Shown: positions 1,039 through 6,999 of the stretch, piece after piece
How positions within the stretch are numbered: the first letter of the stretch is position 1
Layout: each line of letters begins with the position of its first letter
DNA from: Bacteroidota bacterium
GTDB taxonomy: Bacteria > Bacteroidota > Bacteroidia > Cytophagales > UBA9547
DNA length: 64,000 bases
Assembly: GCA_041191405.1 (NCBI GenBank)
Contig: JBEEOW010000011.1
Location: 13,394 to 77,393, forward strand
Direction of reading: 5' to 3'
Notes under the pieces: model-generated
Seen by the model: only the letters and a program-made list of their open reading frames with translations
Database searches by the model: none
Told to the model about the DNA's origin: nothing
Translations under genes and position numbers: made by a program

Positions 1039-1815
1039 TCATTTATGTAATATCTTTTTAGTTTGCCTAACTAAGTTAACAAATAGCTCTTCTTTTTCAT
1101 CATAGTTCATTTTCGTTATAGGTCTATTTGGAGGATTCATTGTTTGAAATACATTTAATTCATTAAATTCTTCAAACAGGCATGGCTTTAAAATAACTAT
1201 TAAAATTACAGCACCTTCTTTCTCTGCTGCACTCAATAAATGAGGCAATTCATTTGATGCAATAAAATCTGAACCTAAAAAGTCTGTACTAACAAGAAGA
1301 ATTGCTACTTTGGTTGTTAAAATAGCCTTTTCAATTTCTTCTTTCCATTTTTGACCTGGTTCAATTTTGGAGTCATCCCAAAAGTCTATTTTACTAAGGA
1401 ATGGTTTAAAATGTCTTTGAACATCCGTTAAGAATTCTTTGTCTAAATGACTATAACTTACGAAAACCTTGTCTCTAATTTTATGTTCATTGCTTTTAAA
1501 TTTTTGATGAGCAATAATTGGTAAAGTGTCAATTTCTTGCTTTATATAGAATAGAAGATTTTCTGCTTTAATTTCTTTTGGACATTTCGGAATTGATTGA
1601 CCATTGTGAGCTTCTAATCTATGTTCTTCAAGGTCTTTTTTTATTTGAAATTCGATTTCATCTAAAAATATTGCTTTGTTCTCTGATGTGTAAAAATCAT
1701 TAAGTCGATGTTTTAACTCATGAAAATCATCAATAGCATTAACTTTATTTGAGCTTTTAATTTTGTTGTCAAAGAATTTAAATGATTCTTTTCTTATAAT
1801 TTCTTCTTCATTCAT
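1039..1815 (-). CDS. TIR-domain protein (C-terminal TIR_2-type domain, unknown N-terminal ~110 aa domain)
   Basis: KVFVSYSHLDKEF, FWDDSKIEPGQKWKEEIEKAI, VAILLVSTDFLGSDFIASNELP are typical bacterial TIR motifs, including the Glu at the catalytic position. Confidence 0.9.
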   Translation of the reverse strand: MNEEEIIRKESFKFFDNKIKSSNKVNAIDDFHELKHRLNDFYTSENKAIFLDEIEFQIKKDLEEHRLEAHNGQSIPKCPKEIKAENLLFYIKQEIDTLPIIAHQKFKSNEHKIRDKVFVSYSHLDKEFLTDVQRHFKPFLSKIDFWDDSKIEPGQKWKEEIEKAILTTKVAILLVSTDFLGSDFIASNELPHLLSAAEKEGAVILIVILKPCLFEEFNELNVFQTMNPPNRPITKMNYDEKEELFVNLVRQTKKILHK

Positions 1816-1849
1816 ATTTATAAATAGTTTATTTTTAATTTTTGGTTAA

Positions 1850-2434
1850 TTATTTTGCATTTTCAATCCATTTAGGAAAATTATTATATCCATTATCATC
1901 TATCCAATCATAAACATTCACCCATTCCGATAGTTTAAAACCTTTTCCCCAATGTTGTCTGTCCATATTAATTAATTTTTTAATGGGTAAATCAGTATAA
2001 ATTTTCCAATTCCTACCATCGTGTTCATAATAAGTCAAAGTAGTACCGTCCTTACTAATTGTGAAACCTAAATAATCAAAAATATTAGGTCCTTTCGAAA
2101 ATACATTTTGATTCTTATCTTTTACACTATTTATGTGAACTCCAAATAATTTATTACCTCTGTCATAACTTTTTAAAATTTCGTATCTAACCCATCGTCT
2201 CTCCCAAGTATTTGTACCAATTAATGCACAAGTAACAGATGTATTTTCTAGATTTGAATTTATTAGTCTTTTTAAAGAAAGTTCTCCATGTCTTTTAGCA
2301 TCCTCCCAAATGGAAGCATCAAAAAAACCAGCATCTTGACCACTTTGTTTTGTAACGCCGTGATTTCTTACAACATTTGCTCTAAATGTTTTTACATCTT
2401 CATAATGAAAACTAAAAAAAACTCTTTTTGCCAT
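1850..2434 (-). CDS. Thoeris ThsB-like TIR protein (DUF1863-type)
   Basis: MAKRVFFSFHYEDVKTFRANVVRNH, SVTCALIGTNTWERRWVRYEILKS, GNKLFGVHI match the ThsB TIR-like pattern. Confidence 0.88.
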   Translation of the reverse strand: MAKRVFFSFHYEDVKTFRANVVRNHGVTKQSGQDAGFFDASIWEDAKRHGELSLKRLINSNLENTSVTCALIGTNTWERRWVRYEILKSYDRGNKLFGVHINSVKDKNQNVFSKGPNIFDYLGFTISKDGTTLTYYEHDGRNWKIYTDLPIKKLINMDRQHWGKGFKLSEWVNVYDWIDDNGYNNFPKWIENAK

Positions 2435-2436
2435 CT

Positions 2437-2838
2437 TTAATTAATTATAAACATTACTATAAGTGTGATAATTAAAAGTGTACCATAAAACATAAGAAGT
2501 GTTTTTGAAAAAGTACAAGGAATCCATGTATTCTTTCCTTTGTTATATGGAGATGCATTTAAATCAAAATCTATATCTTCTTCATTTTTGTTTTTTACAA
2601 TATTATAAAGCTCTCGATATTGCCTTTCTAAGCTTAAATAATAGCCGTCCAAAAACCAAAATAATGGTGTTGATATGTAAGTTATAATTATATATTTTAT
2701 GTTCAGATCTTTAGCTGCAAATGCAAAAAGTGCTGCAACTAAAGAAACAGTCCAACCTTTCAAAAGAAAAGAGTTTACATTCATCCTAGTTATTACTAGT
2801 TGAATAAATTCTAGATGTTTTAATTTTTTTTCCATCAT
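2437..2838 (-). CDS. Small 3-TM membrane protein, TIR-associated (candidate effector)
   Basis: 133 aa. KHLEFIQLVITRM helix, then three hydrophobic segments with an LDGYYLSLERQYRELY motif; tightly coupled to the TIR genes on both sides. Confidence 0.75.
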   Translation of the reverse strand: MMEKKLKHLEFIQLVITRMNVNSFLLKGWTVSLVAALFAFAAKDLNIKYIIITYISTPLFWFLDGYYLSLERQYRELYNIVKNKNEEDIDFDLNASPYNKGKNTWIPCTFSKTLLMFYGTLLIITLIVMFIIN

Positions 2839-2853
2839 TTAAGTTTTGATTCT

Positions 2854-3630
2854 TCACAAAATTATATTCATGTCTTTAATCGACTTAATTTTATATAATA
2901 TATCAAGTGCAGATACAGCATTATTTGAAATATATTTTTTTTGCCATTCTAGTAAAGTGTTCATGTTTATATCAACTAAGTGTGATAAATTGACATCATA
3001 TTTTATTTTAAGACTCTCATTGATTACACCATCCTTTGAGAAATATTTGGTTTCTTGATTATTTCGTCTTCTAGGAATTGACTTTCGAATCATTTGTGAC
3101 ATTGCAATTTCAGAGTAAATCCAAGGTGATTCTGTTTTGCCTATTACTTCTGTTGTTGAAATAGAGTTTGGGGTATTTAGAAAAAATAAACACTCAGTTT
3201 TATCAATCATCATTGATAATGCAGTTGATAACATCATATGTACATGACTTGTAGAATAATTTCTTTGATTATAATTATAATAACCATCAGCTTGAATACA
3301 ATATTTTTGATCAATGAGTTTAAGTAATTCATTTGAATAACCCCAAATACAAGAATCAATAAATGCTTTAATCTTAAAAGTATCATAAAGCCAGCCAGCT
3401 AATGTGATTGCTTGTTTCTCATCTTTATGAGAATGAGAAATAAAAATGTTCGATTCAATTTGTGGAAACCAATTTGATTGCATTAAAGAACCATTTATTG
3501 AGCCATCTGAATATGTAAATTCTTTTAATGTACTTCTAACAGTACTCTTATTTGTTTGATAAAGAGCAAATCCTTTTTCGTAATATTCTTCGTTATCCCA
3601 ATCAAGAACTAAATTAAATCCTCTATACAT
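2854..3630 (-). CDS. TIR-like domain protein
   Basis: NIFISHSHKDE, AFIDSCIWGY, ECLFFLNTPNS, TESPWIYSEI: TIR box 1 and the W-x-x-x-E catalytic helix. Confidence 0.82.
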   Translation of the reverse strand: MYRGFNLVLDWDNEEYYEKGFALYQTNKSTVRSTLKEFTYSDGSINGSLMQSNWFPQIESNIFISHSHKDEKQAITLAGWLYDTFKIKAFIDSCIWGYSNELLKLIDQKYCIQADGYYNYNQRNYSTSHVHMMLSTALSMMIDKTECLFFLNTPNSISTTEVIGKTESPWIYSEIAMSQMIRKSIPRRRNNQETKYFSKDGVINESLKIKYDVNLSHLVDINMNTLLEWQKKYISNNAVSALDILYKIKSIKDMNIIL

Positions 3631-3825
3631 ATATTATACTTTTATTGTCAATACAAATTTGTCTTGTTGTTTTATAATTTCGAATTAGGTCAAATTAGTA
3701 ATAATTTTAGACAGTTTATTTTTGAAATAATTAATCTGAAAACTTGAATTACTTTATTGAACTAACAAATTAATTCATTAGAATGAATTAATAATTAATA
3801 TTTACAATCTTATTGAATTTTATTT

Positions 3826-3869
3826 TAACTACAAAAAGTTTACAAATATTTTTACGTAAAAAACACTAT
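3826..3869. repeat. Copy 1 of a ~45-bp direct repeat (probable promoter module upstream of the TIR operon)
   Basis: taactacaaaaagtttacaaatatttttacgtaaaaaacactat, nearly identical to 5804-5848. Confidence 0.8.
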
Positions 3870-3936
3870 GTGTATTTTTAAAGTTAATCTATCAGTTCGT
3901 TACCTCACCGTTAACATATTTTTGGGATTTCTCTTT

Positions 3937-4770
3937 TCATTGTCTGTCATTTTTTGTTTTTCCATATTGAAATTCTATATTACCTTTAGTATTACCAATA
4001 ATAATTTCATCTATTACTTCTTTCTTCCAAACAATACCAAGTTGAGCATGTATTTCTTCTTTTCCAATTCGTCCAGAATACACTCCGAGAAAACCTCTTA
4101 TTGTTCCAATAATTGAATCATTATTAAAACCTACTTTTTCGTCATAATGTACCCCATGTCTTTGATATATAACAGGTGAGCCAGATAAACCAGGTCTTGT
4201 TGCAGTGTCTATGAAAATTTTAGGTAGTTGATCTTCATTAATAGTAGGTTCTGTAGCGATACTAGCTTTTTTCCAAATTGGTAATCCTAAATATCTGAAA
4301 TCGTCAAATGGATAACCTATTACAAAACAATCATCTCCAATTTCGGGAGGAAAACTTGTGTCAAATTTTACAGTGTTAATTGCAGAGTAGATAAAATTAT
4401 CTGAAATATTAAGTTTAATAGCAACTACATCTACATTTTCTTGATATTGGGGATGAACTAACCATTTTGGTAAAGTCATCTCATCATCTTCGTAAAGTAA
4501 TATTTTTTCAAGTTTACTTTGTCCACCACCATTTTCTAATCTTAGATATGTCAAAAAAATATTAGGTATCCCTGCATTTGTTTCTGTCAAAGGTTTCCCA
4601 GTTAACGGATTTCTTCCTGTTACATTATGCCAATTAGTTATTAAGTAATATTCATTTAAAAACAAATATATAAATCCTGTAGCAGTTGAAAATATTAAGT
4701 CAGTTTCTGTAAACCCAATAGCAAGTTGTTGGGTAGTCAATGATAAGTAATTGGGTTTTATTATATTCAT
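3937..4770 (-). CDS. Trypsin-like serine protease (cytoplasmic, no signal peptide)
   Basis: Catalytic triad motifs ITNWHNV (His), VDVVAI (Asp), PGLSGSPV (Ser). Confidence 0.88.
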   Translation of the reverse strand: MNIIKPNYLSLTTQQLAIGFTETDLIFSTATGFIYLFLNEYYLITNWHNVTGRNPLTGKPLTETNAGIPNIFLTYLRLENGGGQSKLEKILLYEDDEMTLPKWLVHPQYQENVDVVAIKLNISDNFIYSAINTVKFDTSFPPEIGDDCFVIGYPFDDFRYLGLPIWKKASIATEPTINEDQLPKIFIDTATRPGLSGSPVIYQRHGVHYDEKVGFNNDSIIGTIRGFLGVYSGRIGKEEIHAQLGIVWKKEVIDEIIIGNTKGNIEFQYGKTKNDRQ

Positions 4771-4879: not shown

Positions 4880-5602
4880 TTATTTTCCTCTTGCAATTTC
4901 AGCTTCCATTTCAATCCAGCTCCAAAATTGATGTTCTTGATATTCGTCCATTAAATCAATTACCTCTTTCCTCATTTTAAGAGCTTGAGCTAGATTATTG
5001 GAAAAATGTACATTCCATTTATGTAAGTCTGGATGAATTTTTGTCAAATCGCTTGGGTCGCTAAATTCCTTATTATTTGATGTAACAAAAATTAAGTCAG
5101 TTGCTATTTGATTTTCTTTAATAACGTGTTCAACAGCTCCAAAATAAAGTAAAGCATCTGCCATATTATTTTTGCTATTATGAAATGGTGCTTGTTTTGT
5201 CAAAGCACGATTTGCCATATCTAATTTTAGCTTGTCTTCGATTTTGAATAACTCAGAACCTTTTATTAATTTTTCTACTCGGTTGAAAAAAACTTCTGCA
5301 AGTTTTTCTTGGTCAGCCTGAACTTCAGTATACTTTTCAATAATTTTTTTAAGCTCTTGTCTATCTGTTTCGGGAAGAAGTTCAGCCATTTTTAAAGCAC
5401 TTTTTGCATGACTACGAATACTGGCCACAACTTCTTGAAGAACTCGTGGTTTATTTCTTTCCCATTCTTCAAGAATTATATCACACGTCAAAAGTACTGT
5501 AATTCCGATGTTTACTTGCTCTTCGAGTTCAATTAGGACTTCTTCTATTCTTGGTTTTGCAAGGTCTAGCCAAGTGCTAGTATCTAATATTAATTTTGCC
5601 AT
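4880..5602 (-). CDS. PIN-domain protein (DUF4935-like)
   Basis: LILDTSTWLDL, ILEEWERN, MADALLY, IFVTSNNKEF carry the PIN acidic motifs. Confidence 0.85.
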   Translation of the reverse strand: MAKLILDTSTWLDLAKPRIEEVLIELEEQVNIGITVLLTCDIILEEWERNKPRVLQEVVASIRSHAKSALKMAELLPETDRQELKKIIEKYTEVQADQEKLAEVFFNRVEKLIKGSELFKIEDKLKLDMANRALTKQAPFHNSKNNMADALLYFGAVEHVIKENQIATDLIFVTSNNKEFSDPSDLTKIHPDLHKWNVHFSNNLAQALKMRKEVIDLMDEYQEHQFWSWIEMEAEIARGK

Positions 5603-5865: not shown

Positions 5866-6812
5866 TCAAAACAACCTCATTTCCAATTCACTATACAAAA
5901 ATCTATTTTTAACTTTTTCAATATTAGTATTTGCACCTTTTGTTGAAATCAGCTTAGAAATAGTAAATGCATCCATCAAATTTTCATCAAAAGGTTTAGC
6001 AAAAGAAAGTATTTCGCTTTGGGTAAGTGAGTTATTTAACCACAATGATTCATTTTCAGGTGTTAAAATCACTGGCATACGTTTACCTTCGTTATGAATA
6101 CGAGCCATTAATGGGTTTGCTTCACAAGTAAGTATTGAAAAAGATTGTATTAAATCGCCTGTTTGAGGGTTTTTCCAAGTGTCAAAATGCCTACCATTGC
6201 AAAAGGCTCATTGTCTTTTAAATGGATATAATGTGGGTATTTCTGTTTGTTAAATGTCATCCATTCATAAAATCCATTACTCAAAACCAAACACCTATTT
6301 GATTGAATAGCTGACTTAAATGAAGGCAATTCAAAAGCAGTTTCCGAACGAGCATTCAAGGTTTTTGACCGATACTCATTAATTTTTGTGCTATCCTTCA
6401 CCCAATTAGGTATCAATCCCCACGACATTGAATCAATTATTCCTGGTGTAGTTATTACTGACCACTTAGGAAAATCAAATCCATTTGCATGAAAAATTGG
6501 TTTGTAAACATACTTGTTTTTCAACTCAGCTTTAAAACGATTTTCAAGCTTTTTGGCTTCGGTGTTGAGTGAATCCCCGTTGTAAATGCCTGCATTTCGC
6601 ATACTTTCACCAACAACCCTCACAAAAAATGTAGAGTAAGGATTTTTGATTAATTCTTCATTTAAATCAATTTGTTCCTCTGCAAAGTCCATCGCTGGAC
6701 TTGGGAATCCTGCATTAATTCTCGAACTAACTAAACTAATTTTGATACTAGTTTCGCAAATTGGTTTGTAAAAAGTTAATTCAGTGTTGCTATATAATTT
6801 TTCAATCTTCAT
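5866..6812 (-). pseudogene. In-frame fusion of the UmuD (S24) N-terminal half to an SRAP/YedK protein lacking its N-terminus; frameshifted near 6185
   Basis: AGFPSPAMDF...FFVRVVGESMRNAGIYNGD (UmuD) joins LNTEAKKLENRF...WGLIPNW...NARSET...RCLVLSNGFYEW (SRAP). Adding one T at about 6185 restores GIFDTWKNPQTGDLIQSFSILTCEANPLMARIHNEGKRMPVIL, continuous with ORF 5866-6108. Confidence 0.85.
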
Positions 6813-6999
6813 TGTGTTTGAACTTTCCACAAAGAAGGTTATTATTATTCTCAATTAGCGAGAATGAAAAAAATGTTTATTTAAGTTATTGAATTAGACA
6901 AATATTAGCGTGTTTCATTTTTATCAAAATGAAAAATTAATTATATTTATGTAGTAGTAAATAAATCTAAAGTATTCATAAAATTAAATATCTAAAATT

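Follow-up and report, generated by a model that had tools for sequence, protein, structure and literature searches.

What does a small membrane protein do in the midst of three different TIR proteins? We addressed this question for a four-gene operon in a stretch of 64,000 nucleotides (the window) from a Bacteroidota bacterium (assembly GCA_041191405.1, contig JBEEOW010000011.1, positions 13,394 to 77,393). An earlier note on this DNA had proposed the operon as a candidate new antiphage system, made of three TIR proteins and a protein with three transmembrane (TM) segments, and lacking ThsA. We conclude with good confidence that this anti-phage operon belongs to the Thoeris family, to the kind that combines TIR proteins with a small three-helix membrane effector and is catalogued as candidate PDC-M50, and that it is most probably a type V Thoeris system (ThsB + ThsF).

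All the genes described here lie on the minus strand, and coordinates are window positions. The list of open reading frames (ORFs) agrees with the layout described in the earlier note, namely four co-oriented genes, separated by 15, 2 and 34 bp, that lie upstream of hsdM. Gene 1 (2854..3630) encodes a ThsB-type TIR-like protein of 258 amino acids (aa) matched by PADLOC PDLC00430; gene 2 (2437..2838), a membrane protein of 133 aa matched by PADLOC PDC-M50A; gene 3 (1850..2434), a canonical ThsB TIR protein of 194 aa matched by Pfam ThsB_TIR and by PADLOC; and gene 4 (1039..1815), an X-TIR protein of 258 aa matched by Pfam TIR_2. The hsdM gene follows after 126 bp (912-1; the window edge cuts it, and it encodes 520 aa in the genome). 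Since each operon gene has strong profile matches, these are real genes and not chance ORFs. The three motifs listed in the earlier note were also found where it had placed them, SPWIYSE in gene 1, WVRYE in gene 3 and FIASNE in gene 4, and their glutamates are Glu174, Glu85 and Glu189, respectively. As in Thoeris systems, the operon thus combines TIR genes that keep a catalytic-type Glu with a non-TIR effector gene in conserved linkage to TIR genes.

The product of gene 3 matched Pfam ThsB_TIR (1.4e-20) and the PADLOC ThsB model PDLC00431 (4.1e-56), and over residues 1-193 it also matched PADLOC PDC-M50B (8.6e-56). A search against the PDB returned full-length matches (E 5e-68) to entries 6LHY and 9B7D, both of the ThsB of B. 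cereus MSX-D12 (BcThsB), with an identity of ~57% (108 of 190 aligned positions, counted manually) and an identical RRWVRYEI motif. The catalytic-type Glu85 of this motif corresponds to the presumed catalytic residue of BcThsB. Entry 6LHY is reported as the ThsB of B. cereus MSX-D12 (PMC7272460). According to a recent survey of Thoeris systems (Yirmiya et al., bioRxiv 10.64898/2025.12.03.692087), type I TIRs make 3' cyclic ADP-ribose (3'cADPR), as do the TIRs of types V and IX; type IV Thoeris uses N7-cADPR; and a single TIR cluster brings together 302 type I, 160 type IV and 122 DUF2270-linked TIRs. Because gene 3 is ~57% identical to the B. cereus protein, its product is most likely 3'cADPR.

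The membrane protein encoded by gene 2 matched PADLOC PDC-M50A over residues 1-131 (7.9e-56) and gave no match in NCBIfam and none in Pfam at E<=0.1. An AlphaFold2 model built with 114 diverse relatives (predicted local distance difference test score, pLDDT, 96.7) has long helices at residues 3-44, 48-82 and 112-132. In the hydropathy profile of the protein itself, the segments at 24-42 and 114-132 are strong, whereas the one between them is weaker, with a peak of 1.31; at the level of the family there are three segments, with peaks of 1.70, 1.75 and 2.34, the middle one averaging 1.75. Predicted helices and hydropathy therefore agree with the three-TM description of the earlier note, a reasonable label for this model, with the middle segment being weaker in the protein of the window. 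A structure search of the PDB with the model gave no match at E<=0.001.

The family to which this protein belongs is large, with 829 matches in 90% clusters and 4088 representative clusters at E<=1e-3. Its conserved residues are K5, K7, H8, R18 (invariant), K27, W29, D64, E71, R72, R75 and Y78; most are charged or aromatic and lie at helix ends, and basic residues flank the membrane helices. This pattern suggests a basic cytoplasmic face that may suit a nucleotide ligand. An initial search for longer fusions of the TM module returned one protein of 254 aa with no Pfam annotation, and a deeper search of the representative clusters yielded three more. The first of these (P0149, 378 aa) joins a SLOG LD_cluster2 domain to the TM module, another (P0123, 351 aa) joins it to an 8xMP membrane module, and the last (P0146, 362 aa) carries an N-terminal portion of ~225 aa without assignment. 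A SLOG sensor joined to the TM module is the arrangement that would be expected of an effector module. A prediction of a four-copy complex of the TM protein scored 0.25 against a mark of 0.42, controls not having been run, and weighs neither for nor against oligomerisation. We predict that gene 2 encodes a signal-gated membrane effector, probably of the ThsF type that defines type V Thoeris.

Is this a new system? The claim of novelty did not survive comparison with catalogued systems. Both component models of the PADLOC two-gene candidate PDC-M50 (PADLOC-DB v2.0.0) match genes 2 and 3 over their full length, in adjacent genes 2 bp apart, and the order TM gene then ThsB is the conserved core in 18 of 20 close relatives; the operon differs from the candidate by an additional PDLC00430-type TIR upstream and by the X-TIR downstream. 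We found no publication that mentions PDC-M50 by name. In addition, a TIR gene beside a small protein with three membrane helices is the layout published for type V Thoeris. The survey lists 29 putative and 11 validated Thoeris types as of December 2025, describes type V as a TIR plus a small three-TM effector with experimental validation, and assigns the effector ThsF to Pfam DUF2270 (PF10028) (Yirmiya et al.). There, AlphaFold3 models ThsF as a ring of seven identical protomers that has basic pockets between them, and the type V system found in B. thuringiensis is triggered by 3'cADPR, whose addition is toxic, and has its defence blocked by the Tad1 sponge. The survey further describes type V as "especially enriched in Bacteroidota" and reports that an island can hold as many as seven ThsB genes together with several effectors; an island of Psychrilyobacter atlanticus has four ThsF and two ThsJ genes (Yirmiya et al.). 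Our operon resembles type V in its small three-helix effector beside TIR genes, in a ThsB that falls in the type I ThsB cluster, and in belonging to the phylum in which the type is enriched; the reported islands with many ThsB genes are a further parallel. It differs in that its TM protein does not reach PF10028 and in having three different TIR genes around one effector, and the validated examples of type V come from Bacillus.

The remaining Thoeris types fit less of the operon. With type I (a SIR2-SLOG ThsA plus ThsB, as in B. cereus MSX-D12) it shares a ThsB that is a close homologue of 6LHY, and a single effector served by one ThsB gene or by several diverse ones is the normal layout there; since 2018-2020 it has been considered usual for Thoeris that an effector comes with more than one ThsB gene. 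Unlike type I, the operon has a membrane effector without a recognisable sensor domain, in a genome without SIR2_2 or LD_cluster2 matches. In type VII (ThsB plus the SLATT effector ThsH) and type II (TM-Macro ThsC/ThsA), a TIR-made signal activates a membrane-disrupting effector, and SLATT modules, like the TM module of the operon, can be fused to a SLOG domain; gene 2, however, matched no SLATT family of Pfam, and the search for Macro domains in the genome gave nothing. Type III, which combines several TIR proteins with a SLOG-domain effector, likewise has several different TIR genes per operon, but no SLOG effector was found here (a search with a weak control) and the NCBIfam model ThcB4 reached only 13.1 bits against a cut-off of 220. 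In a survey of E. coli TIR proteins, a system of two genes, one for a TIR and one for a TM protein, was also validated, its family not being named in the text consulted (PMC11350192).

The absence of ThsA stated in the earlier note holds, as far as the profiles searched go, for the genome as a whole, which is 100% complete by marker genes and consists of 70 contigs. Searches of it with the SIR2_2 and Macro profiles gave no match (Macro was found in 8 of 14 control genomes), and neither did SLOG LD_cluster2, a weak negative because this profile matched none of the control genomes. The PADLOC ThsA models had no match among 10 local proteins. Pfam SLATT was matched neither by gene 2 nor among the 25 families listed of the 61 matched by its 114 relatives, and gene 2 reached only 0.066 with PADLOC RTasSLATT. 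The TIR_2 and ThsB_TIR matches of the operon are the only ones in the genome.

To characterise the linkage between TM and TIR genes, we used an even sample of 401 genomes of the phylum, in which the TM family is patchy (12 genomes). A TIR-type gene is adjacent in nine of the 11 other TM loci, seven of them firm: the TIR_2 match of L005 stays below the cut-off (24.8 bits), and L006 was counted by its N-terminal resemblance to L005 alone. Counting the operon itself, 10 of the 401 genomes (8 firm) have a TM gene next to a TIR gene. The partners belong to different families, namely the PDLC00430 type of gene 1 (L003, L007 and L011, as well as L056), ThsB-like proteins (L004, L008 and L009), a Roc-COR-TIR protein (L010) and, over all the loci, the ThsB/PDC-M50B and PDLC00422/423/436 types; L003 and L004 have two TIR genes each. 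Among plasmids, 130 records, of which 82 are conjugative, carry the TM family. In 11 of the 12 plasmids inspected, the TM gene has an annotated TIR gene as its neighbour or one gene away, and among the hosts are Desulforapulum, Vibrio, Priestia, Klebsiella, E. coli, Terribacillus, Ligilactobacillus, Rhodococcus, Deinococcus and the archaeon Halorussus. The neighbourhood survey proposed in the earlier note thus revealed a TIR/TM linkage that is conserved across distant lineages, often with TIR genes on both sides.

A scan of named genomes with the single TM protein returned 20 further loci, all of them close relatives, so that their counts are not independent. In 18 of them the gene immediately after the TM gene encodes a ThsB homologue (shortened in L062 and L075), and TIR genes flank the TM gene on both sides in 13. 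Two loci (L059 and L067) have four genes in the order TIR-TM-ThsB followed by a protein of 361-363 aa with a C-terminal TIR, with TIR families different from those of the operon. The order TIR-TM-ThsB is found in 11 loci, with a gene-1-type TIR in L056 and small PDLC00423/436-type ThsBs in L057, L060-L066, L068 and L069. One locus (L070) has only TIR-TM, four (L058, L071, L072 and L073) have only TM-ThsB, and two (L074 and L075) are degenerate. Six of the upstream TIRs were checked with PADLOC; for the others, blastp gave identities of 63-97% to these six. TIR-TM-TIR is therefore the common form among close relatives and is usual in Bacteroidota. The closest relative, L056, has genes 1-3 and no gene 4, with identities of 91% for the TM protein, 88% for ThsB and 76% for gene 1. 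This locus (contig CALRVY020000064.1) comes from a metagenome-assembled genome labelled as the cyanobacterium Pseudanabaena; nearly all other close relatives are from Bacteroidota, a contrast that suggests either horizontal transfer or wrong binning of the contig.

The product of gene 1 matched the PADLOC ThsB model PDLC00430 over its full length (3.6e-81) and had no match in the Pfam, NCBIfam or PDB sequence searches. Its family comprises 2406 proteins; it occurs in four of the 401 phylum genomes, beside the TM gene in all four. The residues S168, P169, W170 and E174 of its motif are invariant across 61 aligned relatives, Glu174 being the candidate catalytic residue. An AlphaFold2 model (pLDDT 75.5) displays alternating strands and helices, and among its insignificant structure matches (E 0.5-0.8) are several TIR entries: SARM1 (7knq), BcThsB (8btn), TRAM (9dlg) and SIGIRR (7fcj). 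Gene 1 thus encodes a putative phage sensor and signal synthase of the ThsB type.

Taken together, the best-supported reading is that of TIR sensors signalling to the small TM protein, since the TM gene is conserved beside different TIR families; the earlier note had named this option and, as a second one, the first TIR as a non-canonical effector. Each TIR protein would sense a different phage cue and, through its conserved Glu, convert NAD+ into a cyclic ADP-ribose signal, which for the 194-aa ThsB is most likely 3'cADPR. An oligomer of the 133-aa membrane protein would then bind the signal at its basic cytoplasmic face, and the oligomer would breach or depolarise the membrane, so that the infected cell stops before the phage cycle is completed. 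Gene 4 may feed the same effector.

How does this reading stand up as type V Thoeris? We hold type V membership to be likely; it is unproven because the TM protein falls short of Pfam DUF2270. Several results weigh against our reading. A search of the genome with PF10028 gave no match, and ten plasmid TM homologues all stayed below its cut-off (best 9.8 bits against 25, E 0.76). The hhalign comparison of the TM family with two bona fide DUF2270 proteins, a weak test with a template of two sequences, returned a probability of 5.9%, and the weak matches of the 114 relatives are to DUF3278 in 40 cases and to DUF2270 in 25 (best E 1.4e-5). The identity of the signal is not secure, because TIRs of the type I cluster also serve type IV and its N7-cADPR, and in the survey one of the two type V systems tested was not triggered by 3'cADPR (Yirmiya et al.). 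Within the phylum, the TM genes of L002 and L012 have no TIR gene within 1.5 kb, and the same lack of a TIR neighbour was found in one of the 12 inspected plasmids (Priestia plasmid H5). The TIR fold of gene 1 was not confirmed, as its model had no match in the PDB structure search at E<=0.001. Finally, the TIR module of gene 4 is promiscuous, and only one of its matches in 391 genomes adjoins a TM gene (G325, the COR-TIR of L010). A tentative alternative, which we judge clearly less likely than type V membership, is that the PDC-M50A family is not ThsF and represents a Thoeris effector class of its own: ThsJ of type IX, or else an untested TM effector of the 2025 survey. Type IX TIRs also make 3'cADPR, so the family could be ThsJ; no PDC-M50A member tested reaches the PF10028 cut-off, the hhalign probability and the leaning towards DUF3278 speak for it, and the nearest annotated Atlas cluster of the TM family is the 8xMP/'RipA' family (0.85), a lead only, on which our literature search (8xMP, DUF3278 or RipA octamers) returned nothing relevant. 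Yet bona fide PF10028 proteins do not behave like a TIR-linked effector: they pass the cut-off in two of 401 Bacteroidota genomes, have a TIR neighbour in none of these two loci and in none of three plasmid loci, and 94 of 98 records of them are large replicons that are non-mobilizable. DUF2270 proper therefore cannot account for a TIR-linked effector enriched in Bacteroidota, and the PDC-M50A family can. Moreover, the best TM relative (E 1.4e-5) would reach ~25 bits against PF10028, a value that we scaled arithmetically from E 0.76 = 9.8 bits and that is not tool output; being at the cut-off, it implies that some TM relatives could carry the DUF2270 label. A stronger version, which we consider rather doubtful, holds that PDC-M50A is a distinct and very widespread effector gated by TIR signals, separate from ThsF/DUF2270, on which three unrelated TIR families converge in this operon. 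The family does span bacteria, archaea and conjugative plasmids. Were it separate from ThsF, the 133-aa three-helix protein, having no dedicated nucleotide-binding domain, would itself read the signal; PDC-M50A would then be a minimal many-sensors-to-one-pore immune hub, and in that case an effector without direct experimental validation. On DUF2270 with TIR, ThsF or type V Thoeris, the only relevant result of our literature search was the preprint of Yirmiya et al.

Two further explanations concern the TIR proteins. Their roles and that of the membrane protein could be reversed, with the TIRs, the first one included, as NAD+-depleting effectors and the membrane protein as a sensor, anchor or accessory. 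In bacteria, the CBASS, Pycsar and pAgo systems are known to include TIR effectors with NADase activity, and in unverified configurations the TIR might be an NAD+-depleting effector, as the survey points out (Yirmiya et al.). We consider this very improbable: gene 3 closely resembles a signalling ThsB, a fusion of the TM module with a SLOG domain exists, in the usual arrangement of a sensor with an effector module, and the validated type V system acts from signal to TM effector. One TM family that pairs with many unrelated TIR families, several at once, likewise fits many sensors feeding one effector. The first TIR as effector, in particular, found no support, since the family of gene 1 was found only beside the TM gene (four of four genomes) and keeps an invariant catalytic-type Glu. 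A more serious objection, although still less favoured than membership, is that genes 1-3 make up the Thoeris system and that gene 4 is an independent single-gene TIR defence or NAD+-depleting TIR, placed by chance between the operon and hsdM. The C-terminal residues 117-212 of gene 4 matched Pfam TIR_2 (2.5e-12), and the protein matched the PADLOC ThsB model PDLC00420 (1.6e-15) and, in favour of independence, the single-gene candidate PDC-S66 (7.1e-7). It had no PDB sequence match, its N-terminal ~110 aa had no relatives in the 391-genome search, and its TIR module matched in 61 of these genomes, in ORFs of many and very different sizes. The closest relative of the operon lacks gene 4, and standalone TIR proteins exist and were left out of the survey (Yirmiya et al.). 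On the other side, gene 4 is co-oriented with the operon and starts 34 bp after ThsB, with no terminator-like site found in between, and L059 and L067 have a different C-terminal-TIR gene, also PDC-S66-like, in the analogous fourth position. Furthermore, a PDC-S66-like TIR gene lies directly upstream of the TIR-TM pair in L003, and in L010 a TIR of the same PADLOC model as gene 4 (PDLC00420) adjoins the TM gene directly. From its co-orientation, its short gap, the missing terminator and the analogous fourth genes, we regard gene 4 as a probable third sensor of the Thoeris operon, its link to the system being weak.

Some of the TM loci show features of their own. The TM homologue of L002 (G017:C96:847041-850433), 56% identical to gene 2, has as its neighbour a gene for a GH25 lysozyme domain protein of >459 aa; our interpretation as Thoeris does not account for this setting without a TIR gene. 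Two Priestia megaterium plasmids, NZ_CP048891.1 (L031) and NZ_CP069403.1 (L020), share a DUF2326 gene and two hypothetical genes as neighbours; one of the two has TIR and TM genes and the other the TM gene alone, a difference that may reflect loss of the sensor with the effector kept, or an annotation gap. In the Rhodococcus plasmid NZ_CP016822.1 (L034), a HIT-domain gene lies between the TIR and TM genes, and it could encode a nucleotide-hydrolysing accessory of the system.

Next, we studied the regulatory regions of the operon. The largest gap in the cluster is an AT-rich intergenic region of 306 bp (3631..3936) between gene 1 and the next upstream gene, which by its position is presumed to be the promoter region of the operon. 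A scan for sigma-70-type promoters was uninformative, as it returned 28 sites against 22.2 expected, and the exact motif TAnnTTTG, the Bacteroidota -7 promoter consensus, was not found in 3631..3936. An exact copy lies at 2857-2864 on the minus strand, inside the 3' end of gene 1 and ~20 bp before the start codon of the TM gene; going by this match to the consensus, the conserved TM-ThsB core may have an internal promoter here. A terminator scan, likewise uninformative, detected none.

The operon is part of a mobile defence island that also contains a Type I restriction-modification (R-M) system, YhcG nucleases, PDC-S45, a PIN gene and integrases. Upstream and co-oriented, at 306 bp, lies a gene (3937-4770) for a trypsin-like peptidase of 277 aa that matched Pfam Trypsin_2 (2.2e-6) and the PADLOC single-gene candidate PDC-S45 (8.8e-13), probably a separate defence gene. 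It is followed further upstream by a gene (4880-5602) for a PIN_12 domain protein of 240 aa (3.5e-18) with no PADLOC match, possibly a toxin or nuclease cargo of the island, and by ORFs of 234 and 80 aa (5866-6854, minus strand), the former with partial matches to Peptidase_S24 (residues 42-96) and SRAP (residues 138-225, profile positions 53-136 of 214), which look like a fused or decayed SOS-response gene pair. We considered the trypsin-like protease, the PIN gene and hsdM as members of the system and rejected them: none recurs beside the 31 other TM loci, and hence we treat them as separate cargo of the island.

Downstream of the operon come hsdM, hsdS, two DUF1016/YhcG genes, hsdR, a YgjP-like peptidase gene and a metallophosphatase gene. 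In the part of this Type I R-M locus that lies outside the window (L079, G000:C11:48-13393), the two DUF1016/YhcG genes, for PDDEXK nucleases, stand between hsdS and hsdR, and the YgjP-like metallopeptidase gene follows hsdR. Beyond the metallophosphatase, at the contig start, there are two Phage_integrase genes and a large gene of 702 aa without assignment, which suggests that the whole stretch of ~20 kb is a mobile island.

As a system, the operon adds little to what is known, since the combination of a TIR with a small membrane effector is already catalogued as PDC-M50 and validated as a Thoeris type. The effector family, on the other hand, is very large and common on conjugative plasmids of enterobacteria, and annotation pipelines based on PF10028 would miss these systems, because the Pfam DUF2270 model does not capture this family and genuine DUF2270 genes are not TIR-linked. 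The operon itself is a clear case, provided by nature, in which three different TIR families surround one 133-aa effector.

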